Assembly (NCBI GenBank): GCA_022703425.1
Contig: JAKLDQ010000001.1
Coordinates: 36,243-100,242, forward strand
Source: Patescibacteria group bacterium
GTDB taxonomy: Bacteria; Patescibacteriota; Minisyncoccia; Minisyncoccales; Staskawiczbacteraceae
DNA length: 64,000 nt
Direction: 5' to 3'
The translations under genes and the position numbers were made by a program. Every line of letters starts with the position of its first letter. Position 1 is the stretch's first letter. Under the pieces are notes generated by a model. The model was given only the letters and a program-made list of their open reading frames with translations. It did not search any database and was not told the origin of the DNA. Of the stretch, positions 2,217-40,934 are shown in pieces.

Positions 2217-2220
2217 AAAC

Positions 2221-4676: not shown

Positions 4677-4736
4677 TATTGCGTTCGGAGGTTTTTTAGG
4701 GTTTAATGGAATTAATATAATAATTATTCTAAACAA

Positions 4737-5144: not shown

Positions 5145-5145
5145 A

Positions 5146-5661: not shown

Positions 5662-5662
5662 C

Positions 5663-6193: not shown

Positions 6194-6294
6194 TTTAGAT
6201 TTGAACGGCTCAGGCGGTCATACACCGTATGAGCCGTTTTTGTTTGCAAAAAATTATTGTATAATTAAGCAAATACTAAATTATTTTTTCAAAT

Positions 6295-7086
6295 ATGTTC
6301 GGATTAAACAAAACAACTCCAAAGTTTTGCGAATTAAAGGGAAAAGTAGCAATCGTTACGGGGGCAGCCAAAGGAATGGGAAAAGCCGATGCAATAAAAT
6401 TTGCAAATGCAGGCGCAAAAGTTGTCCTTGCAGATATTTCCCAGCAGGAATGCGAATCTGTTGCCACAGAAATTAAGAAGATGCGCGGAGAAGCGATAGC
6501 AGTAAAATGCGATGTGAGTAAGAAAGCAGATGTTGATACGGTCGTTTCAGAAGCAATTAAAAAATTCGGCAAAATTGATATTCTGGTGAACAATGCGGGA
6601 ATTTTTCCGTTCGAACCCTTTCTGCAAATGCCCGAACAAAACTTTGAAAAAGTCATCGACGTAAACCTTAAAGGAAGCTTTTTGATGGCCCAGGCATGCG
6701 CAAATGAAATGGCAAAGCAGAAATCCGGATCAATCATAAATATTACATCAATTGCGATGGGGCAGGTTGGCATGGGATTTGCCGGCCTTTCCCATTATTG
6801 CGCATCAAAAGGCGGAATGGTGGGAATGTCTGAAGCTATGGCTCTGGAGCTTGCTCCCTTGGGAATACGTGTAAACTGTATTGCCCCCGGAGCCATTGAT
6901 ACGCCCGGCGCTTCTTCAACAAGATTGGATGTAAAGCAAATGGAGGCGATGCTTGCTCCTATTCCGATGAAAAGAAAAGGGAGCGCAGAAGAAGTCGCAA
7001 ACGCAGTGCTTTTTCTTGCCTCAGACGAGTCATCTTATATGACCGGATCTGTGATGATTGTGGACGGTGGCTGGTGCGCAAATTAA
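6295..7086 (+). CDS. SDR-family oxidoreductase (FabG-like)
   Basis: VAIVTGAAKGMG Rossmann motif; NNAG; YxxxK (YCASK). Confidence 0.85.
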   Translation: MFGLNKTTPKFCELKGKVAIVTGAAKGMGKADAIKFANAGAKVVLADISQQECESVATEIKKMRGEAIAVKCDVSKKADVDTVVSEAIKKFGKIDILVNNAGIFPFEPFLQMPEQNFEKVIDVNLKGSFLMAQACANEMAKQKSGSIINITSIAMGQVGMGFAGLSHYCASKGGMVGMSEAMALELAPLGIRVNCIAPGAIDTPGASSTRLDVKQMEAMLAPIPMKRKGSAEEVANAVLFLASDESSYMTGSVMIVDGGWCAN

Positions 7087-9719: not shown

Positions 9720-12041
9720 ATGGCAAAAAATTTATCTCTGGCGATAAAAATCTGCGACAAAGCAGCAAAATTCAGCGTTTACGCCCTTGCGTTCTTTCTG
9801 CCTCTGGCAGTTCTCCCCGTTACGGCAGATCCGGTTGATTTTAACAAGCAGGCGGTTCTGCTTTTACTGGCTTTTATCGGCCTTTCTGCAACCGTGGTAA
9901 AAGCCCTGATTTCGGGCAAGCTGGATTTAAATTTAAACAAAACATATATTCCCGTTTTGCTGGTTGTGCTGGCGTACGGGCTCTCAACGATTCTTTCGCT
10001 TGATAACAACTCGAGCTTTTGGGGATTTACGAAAAACAGTTCTGAAAGTTTGTTAACGGTTTTTTGCCTTGCGGTGATTTACTTTTTAATTTCAGTTTTC
10101 GGAAAAGAAGAAACTTTTAATCTTCTGAAAACTTTTATTGCGTCCTGCGCAGTTGCGGTTTTTGCCGGATTCATCCAGCTTTCGGGAATTCCATTTTTAA
10201 ATATTTCAAAAATTTTCAGCTTCAATACGATTGGTCTTGTTTCCAGCCTTGGAATTTTTGTCGCCATAGCCATTCCCTTGCTGACAGCGCTCTCTATGGC
10301 GGACAAAAGCTGGATAAGGTGGCTTGCCTTAGCGGCGCTGATTTTCTCTGCTGTATTGCTGGTGATAATCAATTTCCAGCTTGCATGGTGGCTTGTTCTT
10401 GCCGGATCTGTTTTTTTTGTTTTATTTTCCATGCTGAAAAAGGACTTGTTCGATTTAAGATGGCTGAGCATCCCGACCTTTTTTCTTGTTGTGGCATTGT
10501 TTTTTATTTTAATAAAACCGCAGATAGCATTATTCAGCAGGCCAACAGAAGTGATTCTTGGCCAGACGTCCGGCCTTGAGGTTGCGCTTAAAACTCTCTC
10601 AAAATTTCCTGTAACAGGTTCCGGTCCGGGCACATTTGTTTATGATTTTTCGAAGTACAAAAATGCCGACTTCGGCAAGGGTCCGCTTTGGAACCTGAGG
10701 TTTGATTCAGCCGGGTCAAAATTCTTGACTGTTGCGGCAACCACGGGCGCGATCGGAATAATTGCGTTTATTTCCCTGATATTAACTGTTCTTTTTTATA
10801 TCTTCAGATATCTGGCTTCCAAACACAGCGAAGTTGATGAAAGCGAAAACGGGGAGTGGATTTTGGGCGGATCTGCGATTGTTTCCATTTTGCTGATTGT
10901 GCTTGCTTATTTTCTGGGAAATTCAAATTTGGCTTTGGATTTTGCATTTTTTCTGCTTATTGCTGTGTTTATCGCGCTTGTTTCAAAAAACAAAAAAGAA
11001 TACACGCTTTCGCCTTCTTCGCTTCTAACCCTGGGCGTCACATTTTTATCGACCTTATTTTTGATTTTCGGTCTGGGGATAGTTATTCTATATGGCCAGC
11101 GTTACTATGCCGAAACAAGATATTTATCCGGTATTAAAGAGCTTTCGGCCGGAAATTTGGACGCGGGGATAAAATTGCTAGAAAAATCTGTAACGTTAAA
11201 TCCGAAGCAAGACTCGTATCTGCTGGAGTTGTCTCAAGCATATCTTGTTAAAGCCACGCAGCAGGCAAACAAAGAAAGCTTGTCGGATTCTGAAAAAAGA
11301 AATATTGAACTTCTCGTGAACAACGCAATAAACGGAACGAAAATCGCCACGGATATAAGTCCAAATAGTGCGGGCAATTGGTCTGTGCGCGGATATGTTT
11401 ATCAGAATATCATCGGGCTTGTGCAGAGCGCCGAGGATTGGGCAATGACATCTTATGATAAGGCAATTGAGCTTGAGCCAGCAAATCCGTACTACTATAC
11501 GCAACAGGGATCCGTTTTGGCGAGCAAAGCACTTTTGCCCGCAAACGCTACTTCAAAAAACAAAATTCTGGAAGAAGCAATTGTAAAACTTAACGAGGCG
11601 ATAAAAATAAAATCAGATTATAGTCCGGCAAGATTCCAGCTGGCAATGGTTTATCAGGCGCAGGGGAAAATTAACGAGGAGATAAGCGCTCTGTCTGAAG
11701 CCATTAAAGAATCGCCAAACGATCCGGGTTTGTATTATCAATTAGGGATTGTATATTTTCAAACAGGAAGATACCAGAACGCAAAAACTCAGCTTGAGAA
11801 AGCAGTAAGCTTGAATTCTGAATATGCGAATGCGCTGTATTCGCTTGCTCTTACATATGAAAAACTTGGGCAAAAAGAAAAGTCTCTTGAAACCATGGAA
11901 AAAGTCGCAAGCATTTATCCAAATAATGCTCAGGTAAAAAAAGTTTTGGAGAATATCAGAAGCGGGCAAAGTGCGCTTTCCGGAATAGGGGAAACGTCGC
12001 CAGGGCCGGTCCAGGAAGCCCCTCCAGAAGTTAAAAAATAG
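9720..12041 (+). CDS. O-antigen ligase/polymerase-like (Wzy/WaaL) polytopic membrane protein with C-terminal TPR repeats
   Basis: ~12 TM helices over the first 420 aa; C-terminal TPR-like repeats (AxxYxxxG spacing). Confidence 0.6.
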   Translation: MAKNLSLAIKICDKAAKFSVYALAFFLPLAVLPVTADPVDFNKQAVLLLLAFIGLSATVVKALISGKLDLNLNKTYIPVLLVVLAYGLSTILSLDNNSSFWGFTKNSSESLLTVFCLAVIYFLISVFGKEETFNLLKTFIASCAVAVFAGFIQLSGIPFLNISKIFSFNTIGLVSSLGIFVAIAIPLLTALSMADKSWIRWLALAALIFSAVLLVIINFQLAWWLVLAGSVFFVLFSMLKKDLFDLRWLSIPTFFLVVALFFILIKPQIALFSRPTEVILGQTSGLEVALKTLSKFPVTGSGPGTFVYDFSKYKNADFGKGPLWNLRFDSAGSKFLTVAATTGAIGIIAFISLILTVLFYIFRYLASKHSEVDESENGEWILGGSAIVSILLIVLAYFLGNSNLALDFAFFLLIAVFIALVSKNKKEYTLSPSSLLTLGVTFLSTLFLIFGLGIVILYGQRYYAETRYLSGIKELSAGNLDAGIKLLEKSVTLNPKQDSYLLELSQAYLVKATQQANKESLSDSEKRNIELLVNNAINGTKIATDISPNSAGNWSVRGYVYQNIIGLVQSAEDWAMTSYDKAIELEPANPYYYTQQGSVLASKALLPANATSKNKILEEAIVKLNEAIKIKSDYSPARFQLAMVYQAQGKINEEISALSEAIKESPNDPGLYYQLGIVYFQTGRYQNAKTQLEKAVSLNSEYANALYSLALTYEKLGQKEKSLETMEKVASIYPNNAQVKKVLENIRSGQSALSGIGETSPGPVQEAPPEVKK

Positions 12042-12049
12042 AACTAAAA

Positions 12050-12082
12050 AACCGCCTGCGATACGCAGCGCGGTTTTTTAGT
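12050..12082 (+). terminator. rho-independent terminator
   Basis: ACCGCCTGCG...CGCAGCGCGGT hairpin followed by TTTTTT. Confidence 0.5.
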
Positions 12083-12149
12083 TATCCACATTGTTGACAA
12101 GTGCTTTTGATGTTAAAATTAGGTAATATTTTTACCGTATTTGTTCGGG

Positions 12150-14474
12150 ATGGAGCAAATCAAAATTAGATACGTTAAAAGCGAGCCGAAACGAAAGCCG
12201 AGTTCTTCGGTTGTAAAGTTTTTGTTTCCAAAAAATGCGGTTCTCTGCATACTAAGTACGCTAGTTATTGCCGGTTTGTTTTGCTCTGCAGTTTATGTTT
12301 TTGCCGTTCCGCCTGACAGCAAATATGATGCGGGCGCAACGCTTGATCCCGCTTGCACTGTCGGATCTGCAAATTGCAGTGTTGTTGCTCCTGCCGCCTA
12401 TTCGTTTGGTGCAAATAATTTTTCTGGTTCGGGGGGATTTACATCAACTGCCGGTACGGGAACCTTTGCACAAATAATCGATAATGGGCTGACAGCATCG
12501 AAGGTTGTTTTTACCGATTCTAACAAACAGCTTACATCAACTGGTACGCTTGGTCTTGATCAAGGCGGAACAGCTGCCAGTCTGACAGCATCAACGGGTG
12601 GAATTGTTTACTCCGGAGCATCTGCTTTGGCGATTTTATCAGGAACCCCAACTGCTAACAAGGTGTTGTTGTCTGGAGCTTCGGCTGCGCCAGCATGGTC
12701 TACTGCAACTTATCCTTCAACTGCCTCGGGAACAGGAACAATTCTGCGCGCAGACGGAACAAACTGGACAGCAACAACGGCAACTTATCCAACAACAACA
12801 ACCGCGAATCAAATTTTGTATTCCACGGCGCTTAATACAATCGGCGGGAGCGCCGGTTTGACCTTTGACGGAAATACTTTGAGTTTAACAACAACTGCAT
12901 CCGTTCCGAATGAAAAACTTATTTACGACGGATCAAATTATTCTACATTATCTTCTGACAGCATCGGAAATTTGAATGTAAATGTTTACACCGGCGGAAG
13001 CGGAGGCGATATTATTTTTACGCCGGGAACAGCCGGAAACCCCGGAGTTTATTCTGATTCGGGCACACTGATATTGGGAAGCAGCAAGCCTTCGTCATAC
13101 AAAGAAAATCTAAGCTTTGATTTTGAGGGGACCGAAAACACAGTCGCAATAGGATCCGGATCGGGCGTAACAAATCTTACATGGTCTGGAAATTTAACAA
13201 TGGGCGGAGGCACAACCGGAACATTGGTAACCAGAGTTTCGAGCGGCGCTCCGACAGAATCAGATTCCAACGGATCTATCGTTATTAACTCGGGTTCGAG
13301 TCCGGGAATTTATTACAGATATGGAGGTGCCTGGCATTATGCCGGAAACACTGCCGGTTTTCAGATTCCAAGTTATGAAACTTCAGATCCAATTTCCGGA
13401 GAAAAAATAAAAACAGGCGATATCGTCTTGGGAATGATCAATGAAGAATATGAAGATGACGCCCTTCACGGAATCTGGGTAAAATGGGAGAGCGTTAAAA
13501 AACAGCTTTTGGCTGAGGCAAGAGGAGAATTATCAAGCGCCGGAAGCTATGGAACAGGAACGATTTCAGAGGTTGACACAACGCCATTTTTAACAAAAAT
13601 TACAAATTCACTTGTGTCACTTGGCATCTCTTTTGTTGACGGAGTAGTGCATATTAAAGATTTGGCAGTTGAAAGATCAACAACAGATATTGCACGGATT
13701 AAGAAAATAGAAATGATTGACCAGGATACAGGCGAAATTTATTGTACATGGATAAGAAACGGGGAATGGGTCAAAGTGAACGGAGAATGCAGTTCTATTT
13801 CGGCTACAGTAGCCGCATCAAAGCCGGCAGAACAGATGGAGGGGTCAGTCCAACAAGCAGTTGCGCAGGTACAGGAAGCTGTTGAACAGGCGCAGGAAGC
13901 AACAAAGGAAGCACAGGAAGCGACAATTCAAGCGCAGGAAGCTGCTGTTGCGGCAGAAGAAGCGATTGAACAACCAGTAGAATCTTCGGAAGAACCTGCA
14001 GAACCGATCGAACAGCCAGCTGAATCAGAAGAAAACGCCAGCGAAGAACAAAATGCGGAGGAAACGGTGCAGGAAACAACTGAAGATGCTCAAGAGGAAT
14101 CAGAGCAGGAAACGCCAAGCGCTGGCGAAATCATTCAGGAGTCTGCAGCCGGATTTATGAATTCGGTATGGAACTCGACAAAAGGCGCAATTACAATGGA
14201 CTTCTCGTTTATAACACCTGTTTCAAAACTTGCTGCATCGGCTGCAACAAGTCTTTCTAATTTTTCTTCCGATGTGATAAGAGCTTCTGTTGAATTTATT
14301 AAATTTATTTTCAGCGACGGGATCGATGCCGTTTCATCTGCCGGAATTATTCAGAGTTCCAGCGCAGGATTATCAAAAGTTGTTAATAACATCAAGCAAA
14401 ACTCTCTGGTTAAGGAATTTAATTATTTGATAAACGGATTGCTCGAGCCCATAAATAATTTATTAGGCAGATAG
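12150..14474 (+). CDS. large secreted/surface protein: Gly/Thr/Ser-rich fibre-like N-terminal half, acidic AQEA coiled-coil segment
   Basis: signal-anchor; repeated GTxxxxT blocks; AQEAVEQAQEATKEAQEATIQAQEA; start moved to MEQIKI by analogy with the next gene. Confidence 0.55.
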   Translation: MEQIKIRYVKSEPKRKPSSSVVKFLFPKNAVLCILSTLVIAGLFCSAVYVFAVPPDSKYDAGATLDPACTVGSANCSVVAPAAYSFGANNFSGSGGFTSTAGTGTFAQIIDNGLTASKVVFTDSNKQLTSTGTLGLDQGGTAASLTASTGGIVYSGASALAILSGTPTANKVLLSGASAAPAWSTATYPSTASGTGTILRADGTNWTATTATYPTTTTANQILYSTALNTIGGSAGLTFDGNTLSLTTTASVPNEKLIYDGSNYSTLSSDSIGNLNVNVYTGGSGGDIIFTPGTAGNPGVYSDSGTLILGSSKPSSYKENLSFDFEGTENTVAIGSGSGVTNLTWSGNLTMGGGTTGTLVTRVSSGAPTESDSNGSIVINSGSSPGIYYRYGGAWHYAGNTAGFQIPSYETSDPISGEKIKTGDIVLGMINEEYEDDALHGIWVKWESVKKQLLAEARGELSSAGSYGTGTISEVDTTPFLTKITNSLVSLGISFVDGVVHIKDLAVERSTTDIARIKKIEMIDQDTGEIYCTWIRNGEWVKVNGECSSISATVAASKPAEQMEGSVQQAVAQVQEAVEQAQEATKEAQEATIQAQEAAVAAEEAIEQPVESSEEPAEPIEQPAESEENASEEQNAEETVQETTEDAQEESEQETPSAGEIIQESAAGFMNSVWNSTKGAITMDFSFITPVSKLAASAATSLSNFSSDVIRASVEFIKFIFSDGIDAVSSAGIIQSSSAGLSKVVNNIKQNSLVKEFNYLINGLLEPINNLLGR

Positions 14475-14493
14475 CTTTTCGTTTGTTTTCGGA

Positions 14494-15702
14494 ATGGAGG
14501 CAAACAAAATAAAAACCCTTTTAGTAAAGTGTAAATACATTCTCTTTCTTCTGTTCTTTTTTGGAACAGCTTTGTTTTGTTTAGATGTTCGTGCAGACAC
14601 TCTGACCGTTTATCCGGATGCAAGCACTGGAGGAACAACCGTGGATGGTGATGTTGGTGAGCAGTCTCTTGCTGGAACTACGTGGCCATCCATAACGGGT
14701 GCGGCAGGCGACCAGCATTCCGACACTTCTGCCTTAATTAGGACTTATTATCAGTATGCTGATTCCGGAGAGCCCGATTTTTCACTTCTTTATAGAGGTA
14801 TTTTACTTTTTGACACTTCCTCTCTTGGATCAGATGCTACGGTTTCGTCGGCAACGGTATCCTTGTTTGGACAGGCAAAATATAATCAGTCATCCTCTGA
14901 GGGTAGCGGGCACCCGGATTCTACAAGTATTAATGTCTATACATCGACTCCTGCTTCAGACAACGATTTGGCGAATGCCGACTATGCGCAGATTGGTACA
15001 ACAGCCCAGGCGACTGCAATAGAATATTCCAGTTTTTCTGCATCTGGATATAACAATTTTACTTTGAATGCGACTGGATTAAGTAATATATCAAAAACAG
15101 GCATAACAAAATTTGGAACCAGAGAGGCGAGTTATGATGTGACCGGCACCACTCCTCCGTGTGCGGGATTTTGCACGACTGAAGTGGAAGGATATATTTT
15201 TTACTCCGCAGACCAGGCAGGCACAGACAATGATCCGAAATTGGTTATCAATTATACTCCGGCAGTTTCCAACACCACCCCCACAGCTTCGTCTGTCACA
15301 GTATCTCCGAAATCAAACAAAGTCGGATACGACTTCACATTCACAGGAACATGGACCGAGTCAGACGCAGGAGACAATGTCAAAATGTACATATGCAAAG
15401 ATTCCTCTTGTACAAACTGCGATAACACATCCCAGACCAACTGCTGGTGCTATTCTGACGACAATGTAACCCAGCCGACAGTCACAGACACATGCACATA
15501 TACAGCCCAATCATCAGACATTGGCAACCGCAATTTCTACATGAAAGTCTGTGATGACGAACCATCGTGCAGTGTATCAATCTTCGGGGGATCATTTCTT
15601 GTCGGTCCTGCAACGAGCACCCCCTTGAGATTTAAAGGGGGAGTTGTTCTTAGAATTAAAAACGGTTTTGATTCAAAAAGCATTAGAATAAGGTGTTTAT
15701 GA
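14494..15702 (+). CDS. secreted Cys-rich protein, paralog A
   Basis: signal peptide; TLTVYPDASTGGTTVDGDV shared with paralog B; identical C-terminal 144 aa. Confidence 0.6.
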   Translation: MEANKIKTLLVKCKYILFLLFFFGTALFCLDVRADTLTVYPDASTGGTTVDGDVGEQSLAGTTWPSITGAAGDQHSDTSALIRTYYQYADSGEPDFSLLYRGILLFDTSSLGSDATVSSATVSLFGQAKYNQSSSEGSGHPDSTSINVYTSTPASDNDLANADYAQIGTTAQATAIEYSSFSASGYNNFTLNATGLSNISKTGITKFGTREASYDVTGTTPPCAGFCTTEVEGYIFYSADQAGTDNDPKLVINYTPAVSNTTPTASSVTVSPKSNKVGYDFTFTGTWTESDAGDNVKMYICKDSSCTNCDNTSQTNCWCYSDDNVTQPTVTDTCTYTAQSSDIGNRNFYMKVCDDEPSCSVSIFGGSFLVGPATSTPLRFKGGVVLRIKNGFDSKSIRIRCL

Positions 15703-15703
15703 T
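15271..15703 (+). repeat. 433-bp direct repeat, copy 1 (3' end of paralog A)
   Basis: nucleotide-identical to 16909-17341 by inspection. Confidence 0.8.
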
Positions 15704-16169
15704 ATTTACAAGAAAAAAAATATTTTGGGCGGTTTCTATTTTATTGATTGTTTTTGGAGCGTGCGGACTTGCATATACGGCGTACATCTTTAAAAGGCCT
15801 TCGCTGGCAGAGCAGATAAAAAACATGACTCCGGAGGAAAGAAATCTGGCAAAAATTGCAGCTTTTACAAAAATAAGAACTCCCGTCAAATATGCCTATG
15901 AAGGAATTGATATTAAGATTACCAGCTTAAGTATGGAAAACAGTCTTTTAAAAGTAATGGTTTCTGCGCAAAAAAATGGAAAAGAAATTAAATTGGATTT
16001 GCCTTTTTATTACCAAAATCCGCCGATACTCGTAAGTATTGGAACAAAAAGAACTGCAGTCGAATACGGCGAGGAGGTTGAGCTAAACAACTACCGAGAA
16101 GATATTCCTGAAGCACTCAGAAGGATTGTGGGAGAAACGGTTAAGTTGCAATCAGAGAATGCAAAATAA
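15693..16169 (+). CDS. hypothetical membrane-anchored protein
   Basis: N-terminal TM; overlaps both neighbours. Confidence 0.5.
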   Translation: MFMIFTRKKIFWAVSILLIVFGACGLAYTAYIFKRPSLAEQIKNMTPEERNLAKIAAFTKIRTPVKYAYEGIDIKITSLSMENSLLKVMVSAQKNGKEIKLDLPFYYQNPPILVSIGTKRTAVEYGEEVELNNYREDIPEALRRIVGETVKLQSENAK

Positions 16170-17340
16170 ATTTTTAAAAATATTTTTAATTTCTTTGCTG
16201 TTTGCTTTATCTGCTGACTTTGCTTTTGGTGCGACTTTGACTGTATATCCGGATGCAAGCACTGGAGGGACAACAGTTGACGGGGATGTGGCCGAAACGG
16301 GAACTCCGCAATGGTGCCAAGCAAGGTATCCTGGATCAGGAGATACACACACAGATACTGCAACGACTATTAGAACATATCACACAATTGATGAGACAGA
16401 AGGAGTGACTGGAACGTATCGCGGAATACTTCTTTTTGACACATCAGATCTTACAAGTGGCGCAACAATATCGGCAGCTGTTCTTTCTGTTTATGTCGTC
16501 TCAGAGTCTCACGTTCCAGGATTTTCGTCCGCTTTTAATGTCTTTTCCGCAACTCCTGAATCAGACGACGATTTAGTCAACGAAGATTATGCAGCCGTCG
16601 GGAGTACAGTTTTATCTGACACATGGAAGGCATCAACTACATTTGCGCCGTTAAATTGGGAAGCATACACAGCCAGCGCATATAATGATTTTACGTTGAA
16701 TGCTTCTGGGATCAGCAACATATCTAAAACTGGAATTTCAAAGTTTTCAACAAGAGAGTGGTTTGAGGCTCAAAACACACAAGATGAGTGCTGTGACGTG
16801 GGCGGTTGCTTTGATTCCACAAATCCTACCGGTTACACCTACTACTCCGCTGACCAAACAGGCACAGACAACGATCCAAAGCTCGTTATCACATATACTC
16901 CGGCCGCAAACACCACCCCCACAGCTTCGTCTGTCACAGTATCTCCGAAATCAAACAAAGTCGGATACGACTTCACATTCACAGGAACATGGACCGAGTC
17001 AGACGCAGGAGACAATGTCAAAATGTACATATGCAAAGATTCCTCTTGTACAAACTGCGATAACACATCCCAGACCAACTGCTGGTGCTATTCTGACGAC
17101 AATGTAACCCAGCCGACAGTCACAGACACATGCACATATACAGCCCAATCATCAGACATTGGCAACCGCAATTTCTACATGAAAGTCTGTGATGACGAAC
17201 CATCGTGCAGTGTATCAATCTTCGGGGGATCATTTCTTGTCGGTCCTGCAACGAGCACCCCCTTGAGATTTAAAGGGGGAGTTGTTCTTAGAATTAAAAA
17301 CGGTTTTGATTCAAAAAGCATTAGAATAAGGTGTTTATGA
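16159..17340 (+). CDS. secreted Cys-rich protein, paralog B (start trimmed to MQNKF)
   Basis: signal peptide; same N-terminal motif and identical C-terminus as paralog A. Confidence 0.6.
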   Translation: MQNKFLKIFLISLLFALSADFAFGATLTVYPDASTGGTTVDGDVAETGTPQWCQARYPGSGDTHTDTATTIRTYHTIDETEGVTGTYRGILLFDTSDLTSGATISAAVLSVYVVSESHVPGFSSAFNVFSATPESDDDLVNEDYAAVGSTVLSDTWKASTTFAPLNWEAYTASAYNDFTLNASGISNISKTGISKFSTREWFEAQNTQDECCDVGGCFDSTNPTGYTYYSADQTGTDNDPKLVITYTPAANTTPTASSVTVSPKSNKVGYDFTFTGTWTESDAGDNVKMYICKDSSCTNCDNTSQTNCWCYSDDNVTQPTVTDTCTYTAQSSDIGNRNFYMKVCDDEPSCSVSIFGGSFLVGPATSTPLRFKGGVVLRIKNGFDSKSIRIRCL

Positions 17341-17341
17341 T
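16909..17341 (+). repeat. 433-bp direct repeat, copy 2 (3' end of paralog B)
   Basis: identical to 15271-15703. Confidence 0.8.
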
Positions 17342-17395
17342 TATCCACTGTTTTACGGATAAGAAATTTTATATAATAGGAAAATTATTCATCCG

Positions 17396-19975
17396 ATGAG
17401 AAAGAGCATAAAAATTTTTTTGTTATTTGCTGGAATTCTATTTCCCGTTTTTGTTTTTGGTGCAGACGGAACGATCGATTCAACAAACAAATATGCCTGG
17501 TCTGATAATATGGGATGGATTAATTTTAATCCCACAAATGGAAATGTTGTGGTTTCTGACACCGAAATCACCGGATATGCGTGGAATGACAATTATGGAT
17601 GGATTAATCTTTCCCCGACAAACAGCGGAATCTCAAATTCTTCGGGAACCCTTTCAGGATATGCTTGGGGGGAAGGCGTTGGCTGGATAAATTTTTCGGG
17701 GGTGACAATTAATTGCGACGGAGAATTTTCGGGAACAGCAACGGGGGATGTCGCCGGCAATATAAGTTTTGACTGTACAAATTGCAGTGTAACCACAGAT
17801 TGGAGGGCGGCTTCGTGCGGAGGCACTGTTTGCGGAAACGCAAGCTGCGAAAGTGGAGAAAGCTGTTCCACTTGCCCAGCTGACTGCGGAACATGCCCGG
17901 CAGTCTGCGGAAATGATTCATGCGAATCAGGAGAGACATGCGCGAGTTGCCAGGCAGATTGCGGATTATGTCCGTGGAATCCCGTTTTCCATCGCGAGTG
18001 CAATACTGATCTTCAGTGTATTTCTGTAATCGGGCCCGGAGCAAATCAATGCGAAACGAATACAAATTGCACTTCGCACAGAGAATGCAATACGCAACGA
18101 CAGTGCGTGTCCGTTGAAACTCCCGGTCCTGATTTATGCTATACGGAGTCTGATTGCAGTAATTCCCACAACGAATGCAGCGGAGCGCAAATTGTCTGCT
18201 ACCCGGATATTTGTTTTGGAGAACAATGTGTTTCAGTTTTGGGCTTTGGAACCAACCAATGCCAGGTTGATTCGGATTGCGAATCTATTAGGCATAATGT
18301 TTGCAACGAGCAAAAACAATGTGTCTCGGTGGACGGTGAAGGACAAAATATGTGCCAGACTAACAATGATTGCCAGACACATAATGAATGCAATCTTTCT
18401 TTCCAGTGCATACAGGTCACAGGTGTCGGCTCTAATTTATGCCAGACAGATCAGGACTGCAGAACCGCAACTCACAGCGAATGCAATGTAGAAAAAAAAT
18501 GTGTGCAGGTAAATGGAGAAGACGTTGACCAATGCGATAGCGACGAAGACTGTCAGGAGGAGATCGAACAGCACAGCGAATGCAATAGCGAAAAAAAATG
18601 TGTTTTGGTTGAGGGCGCTGGTCCCGATTTCTGTGTGATAGACGGTGACTGCCAAAGAACGCACCTTGAATGTAATGCACAAAAACAGTGCGTATCTGTT
18701 ACCGGCGTTGGGATTGACCAGTGTGTGCAAGATTCAGACTGTAGCCGGGGAAGGCATAATATATGCAATGTCGAGCGCCAGTGTGTCCCCACTGATGGTG
18801 AAGGGGATGATGAATGTCAGACAAACAGAGATTGCAGTTCGGGAACAACCGGTGCTCTACACTCAGAATGCAAAAATTGGAAATGTATTTACGTTGAGGG
18901 TGGCGGAGAAAACGAATGTAATTCTGACAATGAGTGCAAACCTGATATAATAGAAATAATAACGGAGCCCTTCGAAGAAATTCCGGAATTTATTGGGACA
19001 GTAATTGAAGAAACAAAAAAAATTATTGAAACTCCGGCGGGGTATTATGCGACAAAAGCTCTTTCAACTTTCGGACTTGTAGCTGTTGGCGCGAGTATGG
19101 CGTTTTCATTTTCTTTTTTTGAAATTTTTCTTGTGCCCCTGCGCCTGATAAGCCTGCTCCTTACCGCGTTTGGAATTAAAAAGAGGTCTGTGCCATGGGG
19201 AACAGTTTACGATTCTATTACAAAACAACCGCTGGATCCTGCATATGTAACTCTTATAGATCAAAACGGAAAAAAAATAGCGTCGGCAATCACAGATTTG
19301 GACGGGCGTTATGGTTTTTTGACAGAGACCGGAACATACAGAATCGAGGCAAATAAAACTCATTACATTTTCCCTTCAAAGAAACTTGCCGGCAGAACGC
19401 AGGACGAACTTTATGCGAATCTGTATTTTGGCGAATTGTTTGATGTAAGGAGCAGAAATGAAGCTGTAATAAGGAACATTCCTTTAGATCCGATAAATTT
19501 TGACTGGAACGAATTTGCAAAAAGGGACAAAAAACTAATGAAATATTATTCAAAATGGGATTCCGCGCTAAGGGAGGTTTCGGACATATTCTTTGTAATA
19601 GGGTTTATTGTCGCCCTCGTTGCATTTTTCTTTGCGCCTTATCCTTACAACACGATTATAATCATTTTATATTTTATATTCCTTCTTTTAAGGATTTTTG
19701 GCATAAAGCCAAGGCCGTTTGGAATCGTTTCTGAACAGGCGAGCGGAGGCCCTCTTTCTTACGGAATAATCAGGATATTTATGGCTGGAACAGATCGCCA
19801 GATTGCGTGGAGAGTTTTAGACAAATTCGGCAGATATTATTGTCTAGTTTCGCCTGGCGGATACAATGTACGAATTGAAAGGAAAAATAGCGACGGATCT
19901 TATTCCGAGGTTTACAGGTCTTCTTTAATAAGCGTTGGTAAAGACGGAATTATTAAAAAGAAATTCCAAATTTAA
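17396..19975 (+). CDS. 859-aa membrane protein: signal peptide, three GYAW...GWINF repeats, two CxxxCESGExCxxCxADCGxC modules, thirteen ~31-aa four-Cys modules (H-x-E-C-N-x4-Q-C-x10-C-x5-C), TM segments, two carboxypeptidase-regulatory-like domains
   Basis: repeats read directly from the translation; hydrophobic segments at ~560-600 and ~740-780. Confidence 0.65.
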   Translation: MRKSIKIFLLFAGILFPVFVFGADGTIDSTNKYAWSDNMGWINFNPTNGNVVVSDTEITGYAWNDNYGWINLSPTNSGISNSSGTLSGYAWGEGVGWINFSGVTINCDGEFSGTATGDVAGNISFDCTNCSVTTDWRAASCGGTVCGNASCESGESCSTCPADCGTCPAVCGNDSCESGETCASCQADCGLCPWNPVFHRECNTDLQCISVIGPGANQCETNTNCTSHRECNTQRQCVSVETPGPDLCYTESDCSNSHNECSGAQIVCYPDICFGEQCVSVLGFGTNQCQVDSDCESIRHNVCNEQKQCVSVDGEGQNMCQTNNDCQTHNECNLSFQCIQVTGVGSNLCQTDQDCRTATHSECNVEKKCVQVNGEDVDQCDSDEDCQEEIEQHSECNSEKKCVLVEGAGPDFCVIDGDCQRTHLECNAQKQCVSVTGVGIDQCVQDSDCSRGRHNICNVERQCVPTDGEGDDECQTNRDCSSGTTGALHSECKNWKCIYVEGGGENECNSDNECKPDIIEIITEPFEEIPEFIGTVIEETKKIIETPAGYYATKALSTFGLVAVGASMAFSFSFFEIFLVPLRLISLLLTAFGIKKRSVPWGTVYDSITKQPLDPAYVTLIDQNGKKIASAITDLDGRYGFLTETGTYRIEANKTHYIFPSKKLAGRTQDELYANLYFGELFDVRSRNEAVIRNIPLDPINFDWNEFAKRDKKLMKYYSKWDSALREVSDIFFVIGFIVALVAFFFAPYPYNTIIIILYFIFLLLRIFGIKPRPFGIVSEQASGGPLSYGIIRIFMAGTDRQIAWRVLDKFGRYYCLVSPGGYNVRIERKNSDGSYSEVYRSSLISVGKDGIIKKKFQI

Positions 19976-19978
19976 ATT

Positions 19979-20866
19979 ATGGAATTAATAATTAAGTTTT
20001 TAAAATATTTTCTTTTAGTCGTAACCACCAGCTTAATTCTTCTTGCGCTTCTGTTTTTGGAATCCGTCCTGTTTTCTTCAAAAGAAAATAGCATTGCATA
20101 TTCCGCAACATTTCTTGCATCCATTATTTTGATTTTCTGGCTTTACAGATATTTGGACAAGCAAAACACCGGGAAAAGATCCGAGAGAACGTTAATGAGA
20201 AGAAGTTCTGCGGTAATGCATAACATTAAAAATTCTCTTGCTGCAGAAAAATGGTCCCTGAAAATGCTTGCAGAGGGGGATTTTGGGAAAGTCACTGAGG
20301 AGCAAAAAGCAGTGCTGGAAAAACTTTTTAACAAAAATTCACAAATGATTACCCTTTTGGGAAACTTAATAATTGAGAAGAACGGGGGAGAAATAAAAGA
20401 CGCCCACGTCAACCTTGAAGAGGCAATAAATGATTTAATTTATGATAACAGCGGTTTGATTTCGGCAAAAAAAATATCGTTGGAATTTAAGAATTTGTCT
20501 TATGCACCACCCATTGCAATTGGCGATGCACAAGGCATAAAATCGGCATTGCAGAGCGTGTTTGAAAATGCGGTCAAATATACTCCCGAAGATGGCAATA
20601 TTTCTATCAGTCTGAAAACAAATAAAAACGAAATTGAAGTAAAAATACAGGATACCGGAATTGGAATACCAAAAGACCAGCAGGATAGGGTATTTTCAAA
20701 GTTTTTTAGAGCAAGTAACGCAAGCGAGATGGTTTCAACTGGTACGGGAATGGGTCTTTATATTGCAAATGACTTAGTAAAAGCGAACGGTGGGAAAATC
20801 TGGTTTACATCCGAACAAGGCGAGGGAAGCGCATTCTATATCAGTTTTCCGCGAAAAGAATTTTAA
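19979..20866 (+). CDS. sensor histidine kinase
   Basis: two N-terminal TMs; HATPase_c G-boxes (DTGIGIP, GTGMGLYIA). Confidence 0.75.
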   Translation: MELIIKFLKYFLLVVTTSLILLALLFLESVLFSSKENSIAYSATFLASIILIFWLYRYLDKQNTGKRSERTLMRRSSAVMHNIKNSLAAEKWSLKMLAEGDFGKVTEEQKAVLEKLFNKNSQMITLLGNLIIEKNGGEIKDAHVNLEEAINDLIYDNSGLISAKKISLEFKNLSYAPPIAIGDAQGIKSALQSVFENAVKYTPEDGNISISLKTNKNEIEVKIQDTGIGIPKDQQDRVFSKFFRASNASEMVSTGTGMGLYIANDLVKANGGKIWFTSEQGEGSAFYISFPRKEF

Positions 20867-20896
20867 TTAAAAAATAGAAATTAATAATTTAAAAAT

Positions 20897-21262
20897 ATGG
20901 GGAAAAACATTTTAATCATCGAAGACGACGAGTTTTTAATCGGTTTGCTTGGGAAAAAGCTAAAATCGGAAGGATTTGAAGTTTCGATGGCAAAAGACGG
21001 GAAAACCGGCGCAAAAAAAGCAAAACAGGAAAAGCCGGATTTGGTTTTGCTTGATTTGTTGTTGCCGGAAATCGATGGGTTTGAGGTGCTGGCAATGTTG
21101 AAATCAGATCCGGAGGTAAAAAATATTCCGGTGCTTGTTCTATCAAATTTAGATCAAAAAAGCGACATCGATAAGGTTATAAAACTTGGAGCGATGGAAT
21201 ATTTAATTAAAGCGCAATCAACTCCAGAAGAGATCGTGGATAGAATCAAAAAAATTTCATGA
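20897..21262 (+). CDS. single-domain response regulator (receiver only)
   Basis: ILIIEDDE; LVLLDLLLP; K at the expected position; no output domain. Confidence 0.8.
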   Translation: MGKNILIIEDDEFLIGLLGKKLKSEGFEVSMAKDGKTGAKKAKQEKPDLVLLDLLLPEIDGFEVLAMLKSDPEVKNIPVLVLSNLDQKSDIDKVIKLGAMEYLIKAQSTPEEIVDRIKKIS

Positions 21263-23979
21263 AAATAGTTGCTGTTTATTACTGCGTACTCTTGTGCCTG
21301 GCGTTTTTTGCCGGAGCGCCTTTTGTGTCAGGCGCAGAAAACCTTAAATGGGACGAAATAATGCCTGCGGGAGATACCAACAAAAATTGGTATTCTGTTG
21401 CGGAAGATTCAACGGGGAACACAATTTTGATCGGAGTAAATGGCGGGCGCCTGTATTTATCTCAAGACGGCGGTTTTAGTTGGCAGGAAAAACAGCCGGC
21501 GGGGAACGCCGACAAAGCATGGCAGACTGTTGCATGCGATGGATCAGGAAAAAATTTAATTGCAGCTGTAAACAGCGGAAGACTTTATGTTAGTTCTGAC
21601 TTCGGCCAAAGTTGGCAGGAAAAACAGCCGGCTGGAAATTATAATAAGGCATGGAAAGCGTCCGCTTCAAATAGCACTGGATCGCAATTGCTCGCAGCTG
21701 TAAACAACGGAAGAATGTATATTTCGAGAGATTCTGGCGTAAACTGGTCAGAAGTCCGTCCAAATGGAAACAAAAACATGGGATGGAGCATGATTGAATC
21801 AAATTCTTCGGGATCTGTAATTATTGCCGGAGTGACGGGAGGCAATTTGTATTTATCAAAAGATTCCGGAAACAACTGGACTGAGGTAAAACCGCTTGGC
21901 GCAACAATAAAGGAGTGGATTTCTGCAGGCATGAGTTCGTCTGGATCCAATATAATAGTCGCTGCAAGAAACGGAAGACTATATATTTCTGCAGACACAG
22001 GAAGCACCTGGCGGGAAACACAACCAGCCGGAAACAGTAATAAAAATTGGAGCCGTGTTGATTCAGATTCGACAGGACAGCACCTGGTTGCAGCGATTTC
22101 AACGGGAAGTTTTTATACGTCATCTGACGGCGGACAAAAGTGGATTGAAAGATGGCCTGCCGGCGGAGGGAGTAAAAGCTGGTTTATCGCATCTTTAAAT
22201 GCCGGCGGCACAAGCTTTTTAGCAGGAGTTTATTCCGGAAGATTATATAAATCAAGCGTAACAACAGAACCTTCCCAGAATGAACCGGTGCTTTCAACGG
22301 TCGCAGGTTTGTATATAAAAGGAAAGCCCGGAAGGGCGATTGGGGCAAAATTTGGCTCTGTCAAAGGTTATGTGATAATTGCAGACAAAGACACATTAAA
22401 TGCAAGCACGGTTAAAGTTTCTCAATATATTTCTTCCTGGACAGATGAATTGGTCCTTTTTACCGTAAATCCGGGAACGCTGGCACAGGGTGTTCAGGCA
22501 TACGTTTACGTGCAAAAATCGACAGGAGAATATAATACCGCAGGATATCCGATTATAATCGGCGGCGGTCAGGCAGACGCAATTGCTCCAGTAATTGTCT
22601 CATCTGCGCCAAAAGCAAATGAATTTTTTGTTCCGATTGACACAAAAATCTCTCTTGAAATTTCCGACGCAAATCCCGGCATAAACAGATCCAGTATTCT
22701 TTTATATGTAAACAGTGCAAGAGTTGCTCCTGCAATCACGGAAGAAAACGGGAATTTAATTCTAGAATACACCCCTCCCGCGAATTTCAATTATTTTCAA
22801 AGCGTTTCAGTCCGTATTATTGCGAGTGATTTTGACGGCAATAAACTCGACAAGTCCTATGTCTTTAAGACGATCGCGACCAAGGCATATCCCGACGTTG
22901 CATGGGAATTATCTGTTTTGGCAGATGAAGGATATTCCGAAACAGATGTCGATAACACCGATACGATAAGGCTTCTGATTGACGGTGAAAAACTTGCTTT
23001 TTCCGCAGATAAAATTGCGCTGGAGTTTGTGGGCAGAAAAACGGATACTTATTATATAAGAAACGTATCAATAGCAGAAGCAGATATTTCCGCGGGTGAT
23101 GGTAAAATTGTTGCCGGCACGTGGAGAAAAGTTTTATTTGACAGTCAAAACGACAATACTTGGAAAAACTCAACTGTTGCTGTTCTTCCGGGCGGATACA
23201 AAACAAGCAAGCCCCTTGATTTTGTAATCTATCCGGACAAATTTTATTACGTAACTTTTAAAAACATATCAAAAGCGGTAAAACAGACCGCATATCCGCA
23301 GGCAAGAGCGTTCAAGGTTTCCGGAACGGATTCGTCCGGAAGGGCGGTTGACTTTTCGATGACATTGGACTGGACAAATCCTTCCGCCGGAGAATTTTAC
23401 AATTTAAGCAGGATTTATGCAGTAAATGTAATTGCACGAACGCGCAGGTTGACCGTAAACACTAATTCCGGCGGAACAGTAACAAAAAATCCTGACAAGC
23501 CGTTTTATCTTGATGGAGAAAGAATAACTCTCCAAGCGACGCCACCGCAGGGATATGTGTTTGCATGGTGGTCTGGCGAAAATTTTATGAAAGCTTTAAA
23601 TCCCCTGACATTGATTATGGATTCTGACAAAACTTTGAATGCAAACTTTATTCCTGTTTCATCGACAACATACACTCTGACGGTTATTTCTGAAAAAGGC
23701 GGTACGGGTGCCGATCAAATATATACATCAAGATATATGGCAGGATCTGTGGTTGTCATGAAAGCAAGCTCCAATCCGCAATATAATTTTACAAACTGGT
23801 CGGGCGATGTAACAGGTACCAGCGCTCTGATTAATATCACAATGGATCGCGACAAAACAATTACTGCCCACTATGCTCCAATTTTAACCGGTCCTGTCAC
23901 TTCTGTTTTGCACAATCTGACAGCCGGGTTATGGAGCGGAGTAAAGAATTTATTAAATGCAATAGATTTGTTTAAATAA
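21259..23979 (+). CDS. secreted BNR/Asp-box repeat beta-propeller protein with C-terminal Ig-like domains
   Basis: eight or more SxDxGxxW motifs (SQDGGFSW, SSDFGQSW, SRDSGVNW ...); signal peptide. Confidence 0.7.
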   Translation: MKIVAVYYCVLLCLAFFAGAPFVSGAENLKWDEIMPAGDTNKNWYSVAEDSTGNTILIGVNGGRLYLSQDGGFSWQEKQPAGNADKAWQTVACDGSGKNLIAAVNSGRLYVSSDFGQSWQEKQPAGNYNKAWKASASNSTGSQLLAAVNNGRMYISRDSGVNWSEVRPNGNKNMGWSMIESNSSGSVIIAGVTGGNLYLSKDSGNNWTEVKPLGATIKEWISAGMSSSGSNIIVAARNGRLYISADTGSTWRETQPAGNSNKNWSRVDSDSTGQHLVAAISTGSFYTSSDGGQKWIERWPAGGGSKSWFIASLNAGGTSFLAGVYSGRLYKSSVTTEPSQNEPVLSTVAGLYIKGKPGRAIGAKFGSVKGYVIIADKDTLNASTVKVSQYISSWTDELVLFTVNPGTLAQGVQAYVYVQKSTGEYNTAGYPIIIGGGQADAIAPVIVSSAPKANEFFVPIDTKISLEISDANPGINRSSILLYVNSARVAPAITEENGNLILEYTPPANFNYFQSVSVRIIASDFDGNKLDKSYVFKTIATKAYPDVAWELSVLADEGYSETDVDNTDTIRLLIDGEKLAFSADKIALEFVGRKTDTYYIRNVSIAEADISAGDGKIVAGTWRKVLFDSQNDNTWKNSTVAVLPGGYKTSKPLDFVIYPDKFYYVTFKNISKAVKQTAYPQARAFKVSGTDSSGRAVDFSMTLDWTNPSAGEFYNLSRIYAVNVIARTRRLTVNTNSGGTVTKNPDKPFYLDGERITLQATPPQGYVFAWWSGENFMKALNPLTLIMDSDKTLNANFIPVSSTTYTLTVISEKGGTGADQIYTSRYMAGSVVVMKASSNPQYNFTNWSGDVTGTSALINITMDRDKTITAHYAPILTGPVTSVLHNLTAGLWSGVKNLLNAIDLFK

Positions 23980-23984
23980 TATAA

Positions 23985-24008
23985 AACGCCCCGCGTACGG
24001 GCGTTTTT
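23985..24008. terminator. bidirectional rho-independent terminator
   Basis: AAAACGCCCCGCGTACGGGCGTTTTT. Confidence 0.6.
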
Positions 24009-24014
24009 GTTTTG

Positions 24015-24085
24015 TCGGGATATTGGGATTTGAACCCAAACTAAATCCACCCCATGGACTCGTGCTACCGTTACACTATATCCCG
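24015..24085 (-). tRNA. tRNA-Pro, anticodon GGG; no encoded CCA
   Basis: hand-folded cloverleaf: acceptor CGGGATA/TATCCCG; U8; D-loop with GG; anticodon loop AUGGGGU; T-arm TTGGG-TTCAAAT-CCCAA; C1-G72 and A73 typical of tRNA-Pro. Confidence 0.75.
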
Positions 24086-24162
24086 CTAAAATAACTATCG
24101 CATAAATGTATAAAAAAATAAATGCTTTTAGCATCTATTTTCATTTTATATAGAAAGAAAGC

Positions 24163-24351
24163 TTAGACTTTCGAAGTTCTCTTAATGCACTTGGCACAAG
24201 CTAACACTCTTTTTCCGGAAGCCAAACGAACCCACTGAAGATTGGGGTACTTTCTTGATTTTTTTGTTGGGTTGTATTTTCCTCTCAATTTAACAAGAGT
24301 GACGCCCATTCCGGATTTCTTTCCGCAAATTGTACAAACTTTTTCTGCCAT
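24163..24351 (-). CDS. rpmB: 50S ribosomal protein L28, the 62-aa C-terminal part of the 118-aa ORF
   Basis: MAEKVCTICGKKSGMGVTLVKLRGKYNPTKK...LACAKCIK matches the L28 zinc-ribbon pattern; the upstream 56 codons are AT-rich read-through. Confidence 0.7.
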   Translation of the reverse strand: MAEKVCTICGKKSGMGVTLVKLRGKYNPTKKSRKYPNLQWVRLASGKRVLACAKCIKRTSKV

Positions 24352-24508
24352 ATACGTGTTAATTAATAAATCTATAATATACCATTTTTCAAATAATTGC
24401 AACCGTAATGACCATAAACGGGGGTCTTTTAATTTAAAAGATGTCTGGTAGAATATTGATTGTTGCTTTTGTTTGTATATATAAAAATTATCTGATAACA
24501 TAAAAAAT

Positions 24509-25138
24509 ATGGAACCCATTACGGCGATTTTTTCAATTATTGTTTTGCTTTTTTCTGTAATAATGCACGAGCTTGCCCATGGCAGTGTTGCTTATTCTTT
24601 GGGAGATCCTACTGCAAAATATGAAGGAAGGCTGACTTTAAATCCTTTAAAACACCTAGATCCCTTTGGCTCGGTTATATTGCCATTAATGCTTCTGGTT
24701 ATTACAGCTGGTGCGGGGCCGATATTCGGATGGGCAAAACCTGTCCCGGTAAATCCCTATAACCTCCGCGACCAAAAATGGGGTTCTTTAAAAGTGGCAA
24801 TTGCGGGCCCTGCAACAAACTTTGCAATCGCAATATTTTTTGGACTGATTATCAGATTTTTGGATATGCCCCAGACGACCCCTTTTATCAGCTTTCTGTC
24901 TTTAATTGCGCTGTATAATTTTCTGTGGGGGGTATTTAACCTTGTTCCGATTCCTCCTTTGGACGGGTCATGGATTTTATTCAGATTTTTGCCCGACGTA
25001 AGGATGAGAACTTTTCTTCAGCAGTATGGACTTTTTCTTCTGATATTTTTTATCTTTTTCGGAGGCCTGCAGGGCTTGGGTAATATCGCCGGTTTTCTGT
25101 ATTCGCTCGTAACTGGCACTCCTTTTATGTTTCTCTAA
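24509..25138 (+). CDS. M50-family site-2 protease-like membrane metalloprotease
   Basis: HELAHG; NLVPIPPLDG. Confidence 0.7.
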   Translation: MEPITAIFSIIVLLFSVIMHELAHGSVAYSLGDPTAKYEGRLTLNPLKHLDPFGSVILPLMLLVITAGAGPIFGWAKPVPVNPYNLRDQKWGSLKVAIAGPATNFAIAIFFGLIIRFLDMPQTTPFISFLSLIALYNFLWGVFNLVPIPPLDGSWILFRFLPDVRMRTFLQQYGLFLLIFFIFFGGLQGLGNIAGFLYSLVTGTPFMFL

Positions 25139-25232
25139 TAAAGGGGTTATTGACGTATTTGGGATTATTTGTTAAACTTACAAATACATAAGCGCAAGGC
25201 GCGCTTGTTTTTCTAAATCAATAAAATAAAAA

Positions 25233-25643
25233 ATGCCTACAATACATCAGTTAATAAAAAAGAACAGAAAGAGCGCAAAAAAGCGCAAAAAGACAGTTGC
25301 ACTGCAACGCGGTTTTAACGTTCTAAAAAACAGGCCTACAAATTATCCTTCACCTTTTAAGAGGGGAGTTTGCATCAAGGTTTTTACACAAACACCTAAA
25401 AAGCCTAACTCGGCTTTGAGAAAAGTCGCCAGAGTAAAGCTTTCAAACGGAATGGAGGTTACAGCCTACATCCCGGGAGAAGGGCATAACCTTCAGGAAC
25501 ACTCGGTTGTTTTAATCAGGGGAGGAAGAGTTAAGGACTTGCCCGGAGTAAGATATCACATTGTGAGAGGAGTTTTGGATACAGCCGGAGTCGAAAACAG
25601 AAAGCAAGAAAGATCAAAATACGGTACCAAAAAAGCCAAGTAA
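25233..25643 (+). CDS. rpsL: 30S ribosomal protein S12
   Basis: [11 protein letters not shown]; conserved S12 core. Confidence 0.95.
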
Positions 25644-25655
25644 TCTACTATATAT

Positions 25656-30678: not shown

Positions 30679-31872
<1,194 letters not shown>

Positions 31873-40933: not shown

Positions 40934-40934
40934 T

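Follow-up and report, generated by a model that had tools for sequence, protein, structure and literature searches.

Concerted evolution of the 3' segments of paralogous surface-protein genes has been described for babA/babB and homA/homB of Helicobacter pylori (Pride & Blaser 2002, as summarised in PMC3960876). According to that summary, the 5' and middle parts of these genes, which bind ligands, differ from one another, the 3' segments are more alike within than between genomes, and the pattern is attributed to intragenomic, RecA-dependent gene conversion. Here we examine a locus of similar layout in a 64,000-nt stretch of contig JAKLDQ010000001.1 (assembly GCA_022703425.1, Patescibacteria group bacterium), which we call the window: two tandem genes, A and B, encode proteins with diverged heads and end in one and the same 433-nt segment, coding for an immunoglobulin-like (Ig-like) module and a short basic tail. 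Paralogous surface-protein genes are well known to undergo partial gene conversion, and we consider it probable that a recent conversion copied module and tail from one of these anciently diverged tandem paralogues onto the other.

The window genes depart from the H. pylori precedent in several respects. They are adjacent, in tandem and 1.6 kb apart, in a bacterium of the candidate phyla radiation (CPR), whereas the H. pylori loci are distant; their constant part is an Ig-like module with its tail and not an outer-membrane beta-barrel; and no chimeras or switching were observed in the material examined here, namely one strain-level population and one related genome. A search that covered a subset of the literature, and is weak evidence for that reason, turned up no published account of such conversion in the surface proteins of CPR bacteria, nor of surface proteins there with phage-like heads. 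As for the heads themselves, the described systems nearest to them are the carbohydrate-binding modules of family CBM96, which has been linked to the DNRLRE domain (PMC9971899), and proteins of phage tail modules.

The shared 3' segment of genes A and B

The features of the pair, in window coordinates, are the following:

14494..15702, + strand: gene A, 402 aa (open reading frame (ORF); the exact protein is on record as P0001)
14599..14654 (56 nt), + strand: block encoding TLTVYPDASTGGTTVDGDV, 86% identical to 16234-16289 (repeat search)
15202..15270, + strand: conserved head-domain end (YYSADQxGTDNDPKLVIxYTPA), just 5' of the identity boundary (repeat search, alignment)
15271..15703, + strand: repeat copy 1, the last 143 codons of A (linker, Ig-like module, tail), TGA at 15700-15702 and one further nucleotide (exact-match extension, alignment)
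15699..16169, + strand: small gene, 156 aa from ATG (ORF; same call in contig L005)
16159..17340, + strand: gene B, 393 aa from the ATG at 16159 (the ORF opens at TTG 16126; P0002 is called from 16159)
16909..17341, + strand: repeat copy 2, identical to 15271-15703 (exact-match extension, alignment)

A and B are best explained as genes for secreted or surface proteins, each made of a signal, a CBM96/DNRLRE-like head, a Cys-rich Ig-like module and a short basic tail. Signal-like sequences are present at both N-termini. In A, a hydrophobic signal or anchor (aa 1-34) is followed by the head (aa ~35-256), a linker, the module and a tail ending in RIRCL; in B, a signal peptide and a diverged CBM-like head precede the identical module and tail. 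The first-pass annotation had described tandem proteins of ~400 aa parted by a small membrane-protein gene, and this arrangement holds. The small gene encodes one N-terminal transmembrane helix and a soluble domain, its start overlaps the stop of A (ATGA) and its end overlaps the start of B by 11 nt, so that the three genes are tightly packed on the plus strand. Also as annotated, the two proteins share a motif near the N-terminus, TLTVYPDASTGGTTVDGDV; its coding block is the family-wide conserved start of the head domain (family consensus TLTVYPDxxxExTTVDG), and the differences between the two copies of the block read as synonymous when the sequences are compared by eye.

Base-by-base checking, exact-match extension and alignment all give 15271-15703 and 16909-17341 as an exact direct repeat of 433 nt with a spacing of 1638 nt, the extent first reported for it, and it is the sole direct exact repeat of at least 30 nt within the window. 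Its position relative to the stop codon needed correction. The identity had been thought to run 9 nt past the stop, an out-of-frame TAA in AGAATAAGG having been taken for it; the in-frame stop of both genes is TGA (15700-15702 and 17338-17340, following ...IRIRCL), and the identity reaches 1 nt beyond it in both copies. The last bases of copy 1 include the start of the small gene (GTG 15693 or ATG 15699). At the other end, a 78-nt block (15202-15279 vs 16843-16920) is 78% identical, contains the conserved head-end stretch and includes a 12-nt exact match just before the 5' boundary of the repeat; this head-end stretch would be the homologous sequence that holds the 5' end of the tract. With 433 consecutive matches against an aligned remainder of ~45-60% identity, a chance origin is excluded, and purifying selection is ruled out for the repeat because synonymous sites are identical too.

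The heads differ greatly from the segment that follows them. In a codon-aware profile of A against B, nucleotide identity over the heads is 0.40-0.72 and identity at third codon positions 0.14-0.5, which is close to saturation and near random; by alignment codon ~280 (A aa ~260) identity has jumped to 1.00 at every position, where it remains until the stop. The divergence followed by abrupt identity that had been noticed at the outset is thus borne out. At the protein level the two heads are ~48% identical (blastp of A vs B, head-only comparison), and head A is 48-50% identical to homologues of unrelated contigs. A neighbour-joining tree built from 69 head domains groups A with B as sisters, at a bootstrap value of only 43/100. 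Since the heads are near saturation, their sisterhood is weak and the tail is identical, the heads separated long ago or were acquired separately, and the 3' segment was made uniform very recently.

Comparison of the C-terminal modules points in the same direction. A and B are identical over the repeat and the two tandem paralogues of a related contig, L008 (p1 and p2), are 90% identical at the nucleotide level, whereas all between-genome pairs show 58-70% nucleotide identity, with third positions at 0.26-0.53. As expected of gene conversion, the identity of the tract lies far above that of the flanking paralogous sequence, synonymous sites included; as expected of concerted evolution, copies within a genome are closer than copies from different genomes, a result that independent lineage-specific duplications would give as well. 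In L008 (positions 1771-6441; Ga0265297_10000022, a contig of 693,815 bp), the N-terminal parts of the two paralogues are poorly alignable to each other, and their 3' ~1 kb is a mosaic in which blocks of 91-98% identity are interrupted by blocks of 67-71%. This mosaic has the appearance of repeated conversion tracts of different ages.

In line with this notion, a conversion tract in the window would begin in the conserved head end (YYSADQxGTDNDPKLVIxYTPA), via heteroduplex or repair, and would run to the end of the coding homology, overwriting a pre-existing homologous module in one of the genes. The event would be of the RecA type, and B would have owned a homologous module before it took place. 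Module and tail may be kept uniform for a common anchoring or display function, with heads that could bind different glycans.

Alongside gene conversion, an assembly collapse had been put forward from the start. Only the former stands, in the form of a recent conversion or recombination marked by the step in identity between heads and tail. By exact look-up of the encoded proteins, four matching contigs were found in three other metagenome assemblies:

L001 (ENA ERZ27257456): equals window 11194-15701, from head A into the full segment
L002 (JGI 3300025706): equals window 12447-15701, from head A into the full segment
L005 (JGI 3300010429): equals window 15594-17341, comprising segment tail, small gene, head B and full segment
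L022 (same JGI sample as L005): equals window 17217-25975, from segment tail into the gene for an 859-aa protein

The first three are 100% identical to the window, and L022 has one mismatch in 8.8 kb (99.99%). An artefact, whether a single copy or a differing second copy collapsed or mis-joined by the assembler, is a natural suspicion here: a 433-nt exact repeat is longer than short reads, so pairing or long reads must have carried the 129.6-kb source contig across it, and none of the contigs from the other assemblies spans the 3' end of the repeat. All four begin or end at that edge or at most 125 nt from it, and breaking at a fork is the usual behaviour of a short-read assembler. What the contigs jointly show is head A leading into the repeat, head B leading into the repeat, and the repeat leading out both to the small gene and to the 859-aa gene. 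Two entries and two exits require two copies, and given that the small gene lies upstream of head B in L005, the order A, small gene, B, 859-aa gene is the sole linear path. The copies must, moreover, be without internal differences, because these would have broken the contigs inside the segment and not at its edge. We therefore regard an artefact as highly improbable. Exact repeats of such size break short-read assemblies at predictable points, and the break points can be used to validate the repeat.

Some smaller features touch the ends and the interior of the repeat. L001 and L002, from different samples, both stop at window 15701, 2 nt short of the end of the identity, and L005 reaches the last identical base, 17341; the stop at 15701 could reflect assembler trimming or a minor variant at the fork. 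Both copies contain a G+C-rich hairpin, CCCCCTTGAGATTTAAAGGGGG, followed by a T-rich stretch (15620-15641 and 17258-17279); it encodes PLRFKGG and has a terminator-like score, and may be a coincidence of Pro and Gly codons. After copy 2, the carried-over start GTGTTTATG opens a 22-codon ORF (17331-17399). It ends in an ATGA overlap with the start codon of the 859-aa gene, and its own ATG overlaps the stop of B in like manner. These overlaps may form a chain of translational coupling or be a relic.

Head domain, Ig-like module and C-terminal tail

The head was modelled with AlphaFold2 from a 71-sequence alignment, with predicted local distance difference test (pLDDT) values mostly >90 and, in A, a helix at residues 3-27. 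Foldseek comparison with solved structures returned 8wab_B (E 6e-6, target template-modelling score 0.68) and 7vbo (E 3e-4, target score 0.55), and a protein of the BFVD collection named as CBM96-domain-containing matched the head with E 5.6e-6. Profile searches remained below threshold: NCBIfam DNRLRE (NF033679) scored 22.1 bits on A (E 1.3e-4) and 17.6 bits on B against a cutoff of 34, and Pfam Disaggr_repeat 18 bits against 33.9. The head thus falls short of the curated sequence threshold for CBM96/DNRLRE and superposes as a jelly roll on solved CBM96-like modules. On the strength of the model, it is predicted to be a CBM96/DNRLRE-like jelly roll that binds glycans.

This assignment can be read against the characterised modules, the alginate-binding founder of CBM96 (7VBO, PMC9971899) and a chondroitin-sulfate-binding module (8WAB), which share the jelly-roll fold of the head. 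The weak DNRLRE match extends over nearly the whole profile, and a motif of the form LLFDTS...ATIssAtLsLy is common to both. The heads differ from these modules in starting with the distinctive strand motif TLTVYPD...TTVDG, in scoring 22 against 34 bits and, in the window, in not being joined to a lyase or hydrolase.

The model of the identical segment shows a confident beta-sandwich (pLDDT 87, exceeding 90 over most of residues 1-115) and then a tail of 25 residues at low confidence. Its best match in the PDB was the PKD domain 4xed (E 1.2e-3), which suggests a generic Ig/PKD-like fold, and no Pfam or NCBIfam model covers it. In an exhaustive HMMER search, 268 representative clusters contained the module, either as a single copy or in arrays that reach 16 copies, and the proteins are as long as 3526 aa. 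When the 144-aa C-terminal segment served as query in a word-indexed search, nothing was retrieved, not even the parent proteins; this is a failure of sensitivity and not evidence of an orphan, and negatives from indexed searches with short Cys/Thr/Ser-rich queries are not to be trusted. The module resembles the PKD/Ig-like domains of surface proteins in its beta-sandwich and in occurring singly or in tandem arrays in large extracellular proteins. It differs from them in its weak fold matches, among which the PKD domain above is the best, in ~8 conserved Cys and in standing at the terminus with a basic, Gly-rich tail in ~50 proteins.

In 51 domain hits the module reaches the C-terminus of the protein, usually then followed by such a short tail, e.g. 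SLKFDGGIYFKGGTTIK or VKIKGGTVIKGGTKIR. The tail of the window proteins is PLRFKGGVVLRIKNGFDSKSIRIRCL (15604-15699 and 17242-17337). Across the ~50 proteins that end in module and tail, among them P0169, P0173, P0177, P0200 and P0259, it takes the form h-[KR]-h-x-GG-x-x-h-[KR]-GG-x-x-h-[KR]-COOH. No NCBIfam or Pfam match was obtained when the tail was compared with known C-terminal sorting signals (LPXTG, PEP-CTERM, GlyGly-CTERM, the C-terminal domain of type IX secretion and others). PLRFKGGVVLRIKNGFDSKSIRIRCL has no hydrophobic helix, and AlphaFold2 gives it two short strands at low confidence. The basic Gly-rich tail may therefore be an unrecognised C-terminal anchor or sorting signal.

Phage relatives of the heads and the origin of gene B

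The two heads, like the small gene between them, are members of a family known otherwise from phage tail modules. The nearest homologues of the head in cellular databases, P0004 and P0008, lie on contigs of 37-41 kb with terminase, capsid and SU10-adaptor genes, and a scan of IMG/VR found 247 viral contigs that encode a relative of the head, at 35-47% identity over its whole length. In BFVD the head matched a viral protein with E 6e-24, 34% identity and a root-mean-square deviation of 1.5 Å; more distant matches are phage proteins named as CBM96-domain, tail, minor tail, tail fibre or pectate lyase proteins. Phage assignment is based throughout on IMG/VR membership, on Pfam matches to terminase, capsid and adaptor, and on BFVD. 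PHROGs did not match A or B, and matched hardly any of the genes that surround the phage homologue in L027.

The partner gene is shared as well. By tblastn and jackhmmer, the soluble domain of the small protein has homologues in 10 of 82 phage-like loci (L035, L050, L056, L066, L076, L079, L083, L087, L091 and L092), all upstream of the head gene. The distance to the head gene is 18-75 nt in nine of the ten; in the tenth, L079, a gap of ~500 nt contains a minus-strand ORF that looks HNH-endonuclease-like. In L087, a 968-aa protein with fibre-like repeats is followed by a 126-aa small protein and then by a 228-aa head-only protein that starts with MATLTIYPDASTG and ends right after the head. 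The Ig-like module and tail had no match in the 82 phage-like loci examined.

Phage tail-module proteins (IMG/VR; BFVD A0A1B1INI7 and A0A5Q2WAR1) are therefore akin to the window proteins in their heads, with 35-50% amino-acid identity over the full head, and in the small partner gene that a subset of their loci carries directly upstream, as does the window; more distant kin are CBM96, tail, minor-tail and tail-fibre proteins of Bacillus, Brevibacillus and Arthrobacter phages. They differ in that the phage versions examined are without the Cys-rich Ig-like module and tail, many having a different N-terminal segment of ~100 aa in place of the signal peptide, and in that the window locus is, unlike theirs, chromosomal and syntenic among CPR genomes. 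If it is true that CPR cells and phages attach to cell surfaces via the same glycan-binding domain, genes A and B become candidate determinants of attachment or host recognition. Few such determinants are known in the CPR group, hence the interest of these two.

These relatives also suggest another way in which B may have arisen. A copy of the 433-nt module and tail of A could have been joined, by grafting or segmental duplication, to the stand-alone head of a phage-type two-gene cassette lying downstream of A, with one crossover in the GTDNDPKLVI.YTP stretch and the other junction illegitimate, B being the product. The cassette loci described above, the head protein of L087 that ends after the head, and the many viral relatives, including those with terminase, capsid and adaptor genes, are in keeping with this proposal. 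So is the fact that the identity halts exactly where the coding sequence ends, homology being absent thereafter, and that in related genomes the small gene is missing and its place is taken by genes with other heads. On the other side, only coincidence would put an illegitimate junction exactly 1 nt past the stop, an endpoint that a conversion tract limited by homology accounts for; in L008, tracts are exchanged between tandem paralogues that each have the module; and signs of recent import are lacking. In this regard, head B and the repeat, with G+C contents of 0.436 and 0.441, do not stand out from head A (0.438) or from the neighbouring genes. A recent import of the small gene plus head B was rejected for this unremarkable base composition, and so was a closer affinity of head B to cassette-type phage heads, since it is no nearer to these than to other phage heads (best phage identity 37-45%). 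We hold such a graft to be possible, though rather unlikely.

Several observations weigh against the conversion that we favour. The small gene plus head B (15699-16908) mirrors the phage two-gene cassette, in which a protein of ~130 aa precedes a head-only CBM-like protein without the Ig-like module. No alignable sequence lies 3' of the tract, so that one end of the event is without visible flanking homology, which fits a graft onto a module-less head as well. A closer relative with a diverged, unconverted B module was sought and none was found, so no state preceding conversion was seen. The direction of transfer cannot be read from the sequences, because the copies are identical. Finally, the matching contigs come from near-clonal populations and validate the assembly rather than an evolutionary persistence of the identity. 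In sum, what speaks for conversion is the endpoint one nucleotide past the stop, together with the L008 mosaic and a base composition that is unremarkable; what speaks for a graft is the phage cassette and the absence of homology 3' of the tract. The two readings differ only in whether B had a module beforehand.

A variable slot among conserved neighbours

The genes flanking A and B are syntenic in three related contigs, and the occupant of the slot between them differs. Metallo-beta-lactamase, ADK-like and TPR membrane protein genes and the gene for a 777-aa protein are conserved upstream; the 859-aa membrane protein, a histidine kinase and a response regulator are conserved downstream. The response regulator follows the 859-aa orthologue in 4/4 genomes, and in three of these, the window, L003 and L010, the histidine kinase lies between the two. 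The slots are filled as follows:

L003/L006 slot: one 646-aa gene with an extra N-terminal domain, CBM-like head, module and tail
L008 slot: two tandem genes, 832 and 721 aa
L010 slot: one gene of at least 2077 aa

The N-terminal parts of the L008 and L010 proteins are long and repetitive, bear no relation to the window heads and look beta-helix-like. All slot proteins (window, L003, L008, L010) end with module and tail in RI[KR]CL or RIK. The locus marks a syntenic slot of Parcubacteria in which surface proteins with very different heads carry one common Ig-like module and tail. As a stretch (window 12141-21262), lying between a secreted protein of ~780-1050 aa and a membrane protein of the 859-aa type, the slot is hypervariable, holding one gene, two genes or one giant gene. 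The 859-aa type is recognised by its GWINF repeats and CarboxypepD_reg domain, and all four proteins with the RI[KR]CL or RIK ending (window, L003, L008, L010) have module and tail adjoining such a protein. A constant pairing of the two was considered as a general rule and rejected, as it fails for P0177.

These findings allow a broader proposal, which we put forward tentatively and think unlikely to hold as a whole. CPR bacteria would possess a modular surface-protein system of their own, in which the 433-nt segment supplies the constant unit for display or anchoring. This unit would combine the Ig-like domain with an undescribed basic Gly-rich tail (h-K-h-x-GG repeats, here ending in RIRCL), and heads, including glycan-binding domains shared with phages and their small partner, would be grafted onto it by recombination at the linker. 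The exact identity would then be the footprint of a fresh graft in a hypervariable slot beside a membrane protein and a two-component system.

The hypervariability of the slot between genomes, the probable surface location of the proteins and the capacity of direct repeats 1.6 kb apart to recombine could also be taken as signs of programmed variation, whether antigenic or phase variation or a template/variable pair of the kind used by diversity-generating retroelements (DGRs), with the repeats as recombination substrates. The first-pass annotation had thought along these lines, expecting deletion between the repeats to produce a chimeric gene and seeing in the pair a mechanism of surface variation. 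The former does not follow: both genes end in the repeat, so that a deletion would leave head A with module and tail in front of the 859-aa gene. This is gene A unchanged; the small gene and head B would be lost, and no new chimeric protein would form. The latter finds no support in the window, which holds only two copies in 64 kb, both complete genes with their own start and signal sequence, and no silent-cassette archive, flanking inverted repeats, invertase or DGR signature. An expression site with silent truncated donors, as in cassettes of the pilE/pilS, vlsE and msp2 type, was not found within the 64-kb window. The repeats, being 100% identical, do not have the adenine-specific mismatches of a DGR target, no search aimed at a reverse transcriptase in the window having been made. 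We consider programmed variation very improbable; the evidence shows evolutionary homogenisation and not programmed switching.

The immediate neighbours of the pair are these:

12141..14474, + strand: upstream neighbour, gene for a 777-aa secreted protein (ORFs; orthologue in L003 and L008)
17396..19975, + strand: downstream neighbour, gene for an 859-aa membrane protein (Pfam; orthologues in L003, L008 and L010)

The organism itself can be placed, from its EF-Tu (window 30679-31872), in Candidatus Staskawiczbacteria (Parcubacteria, CPR), as this protein is 90-94% identical to proteins of, where the source is named, Candidatus Staskawiczbacteria, Parcubacteria or Patescibacteria. The label of the syntenic metagenome-assembled genome in L006 ('uncultured Candidatus Saccharibacteria bacterium') looks loose and was not adopted for the window. 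S5 is directly followed by L15, with no L30 gene between them (40322-41366); lack of uL30 is typical of CPR genomes. The term episymbiont, used in the first description of the locus, is an assumption for the Candidatus Staskawiczbacteria lineage.

Both neighbouring proteins are themselves rich in repeats. Within the gene for the 777-aa protein, at 13851-14113, lies a run of repeats with a period of 21 nt (7 aa) and a high content of Q, E and A (CAGGAAGC...), which suggests a coiled coil or a low-complexity spacer. The 859-aa protein starts with three Y(A/G)W..N.GWINF repeats, followed by at least six Cys-rich units of the form H.ECN...(K/R)QCV...G.G...C..D.DC at a spacing of 87-216 nt and then by transmembrane segments and the CarboxypepD_reg domain.

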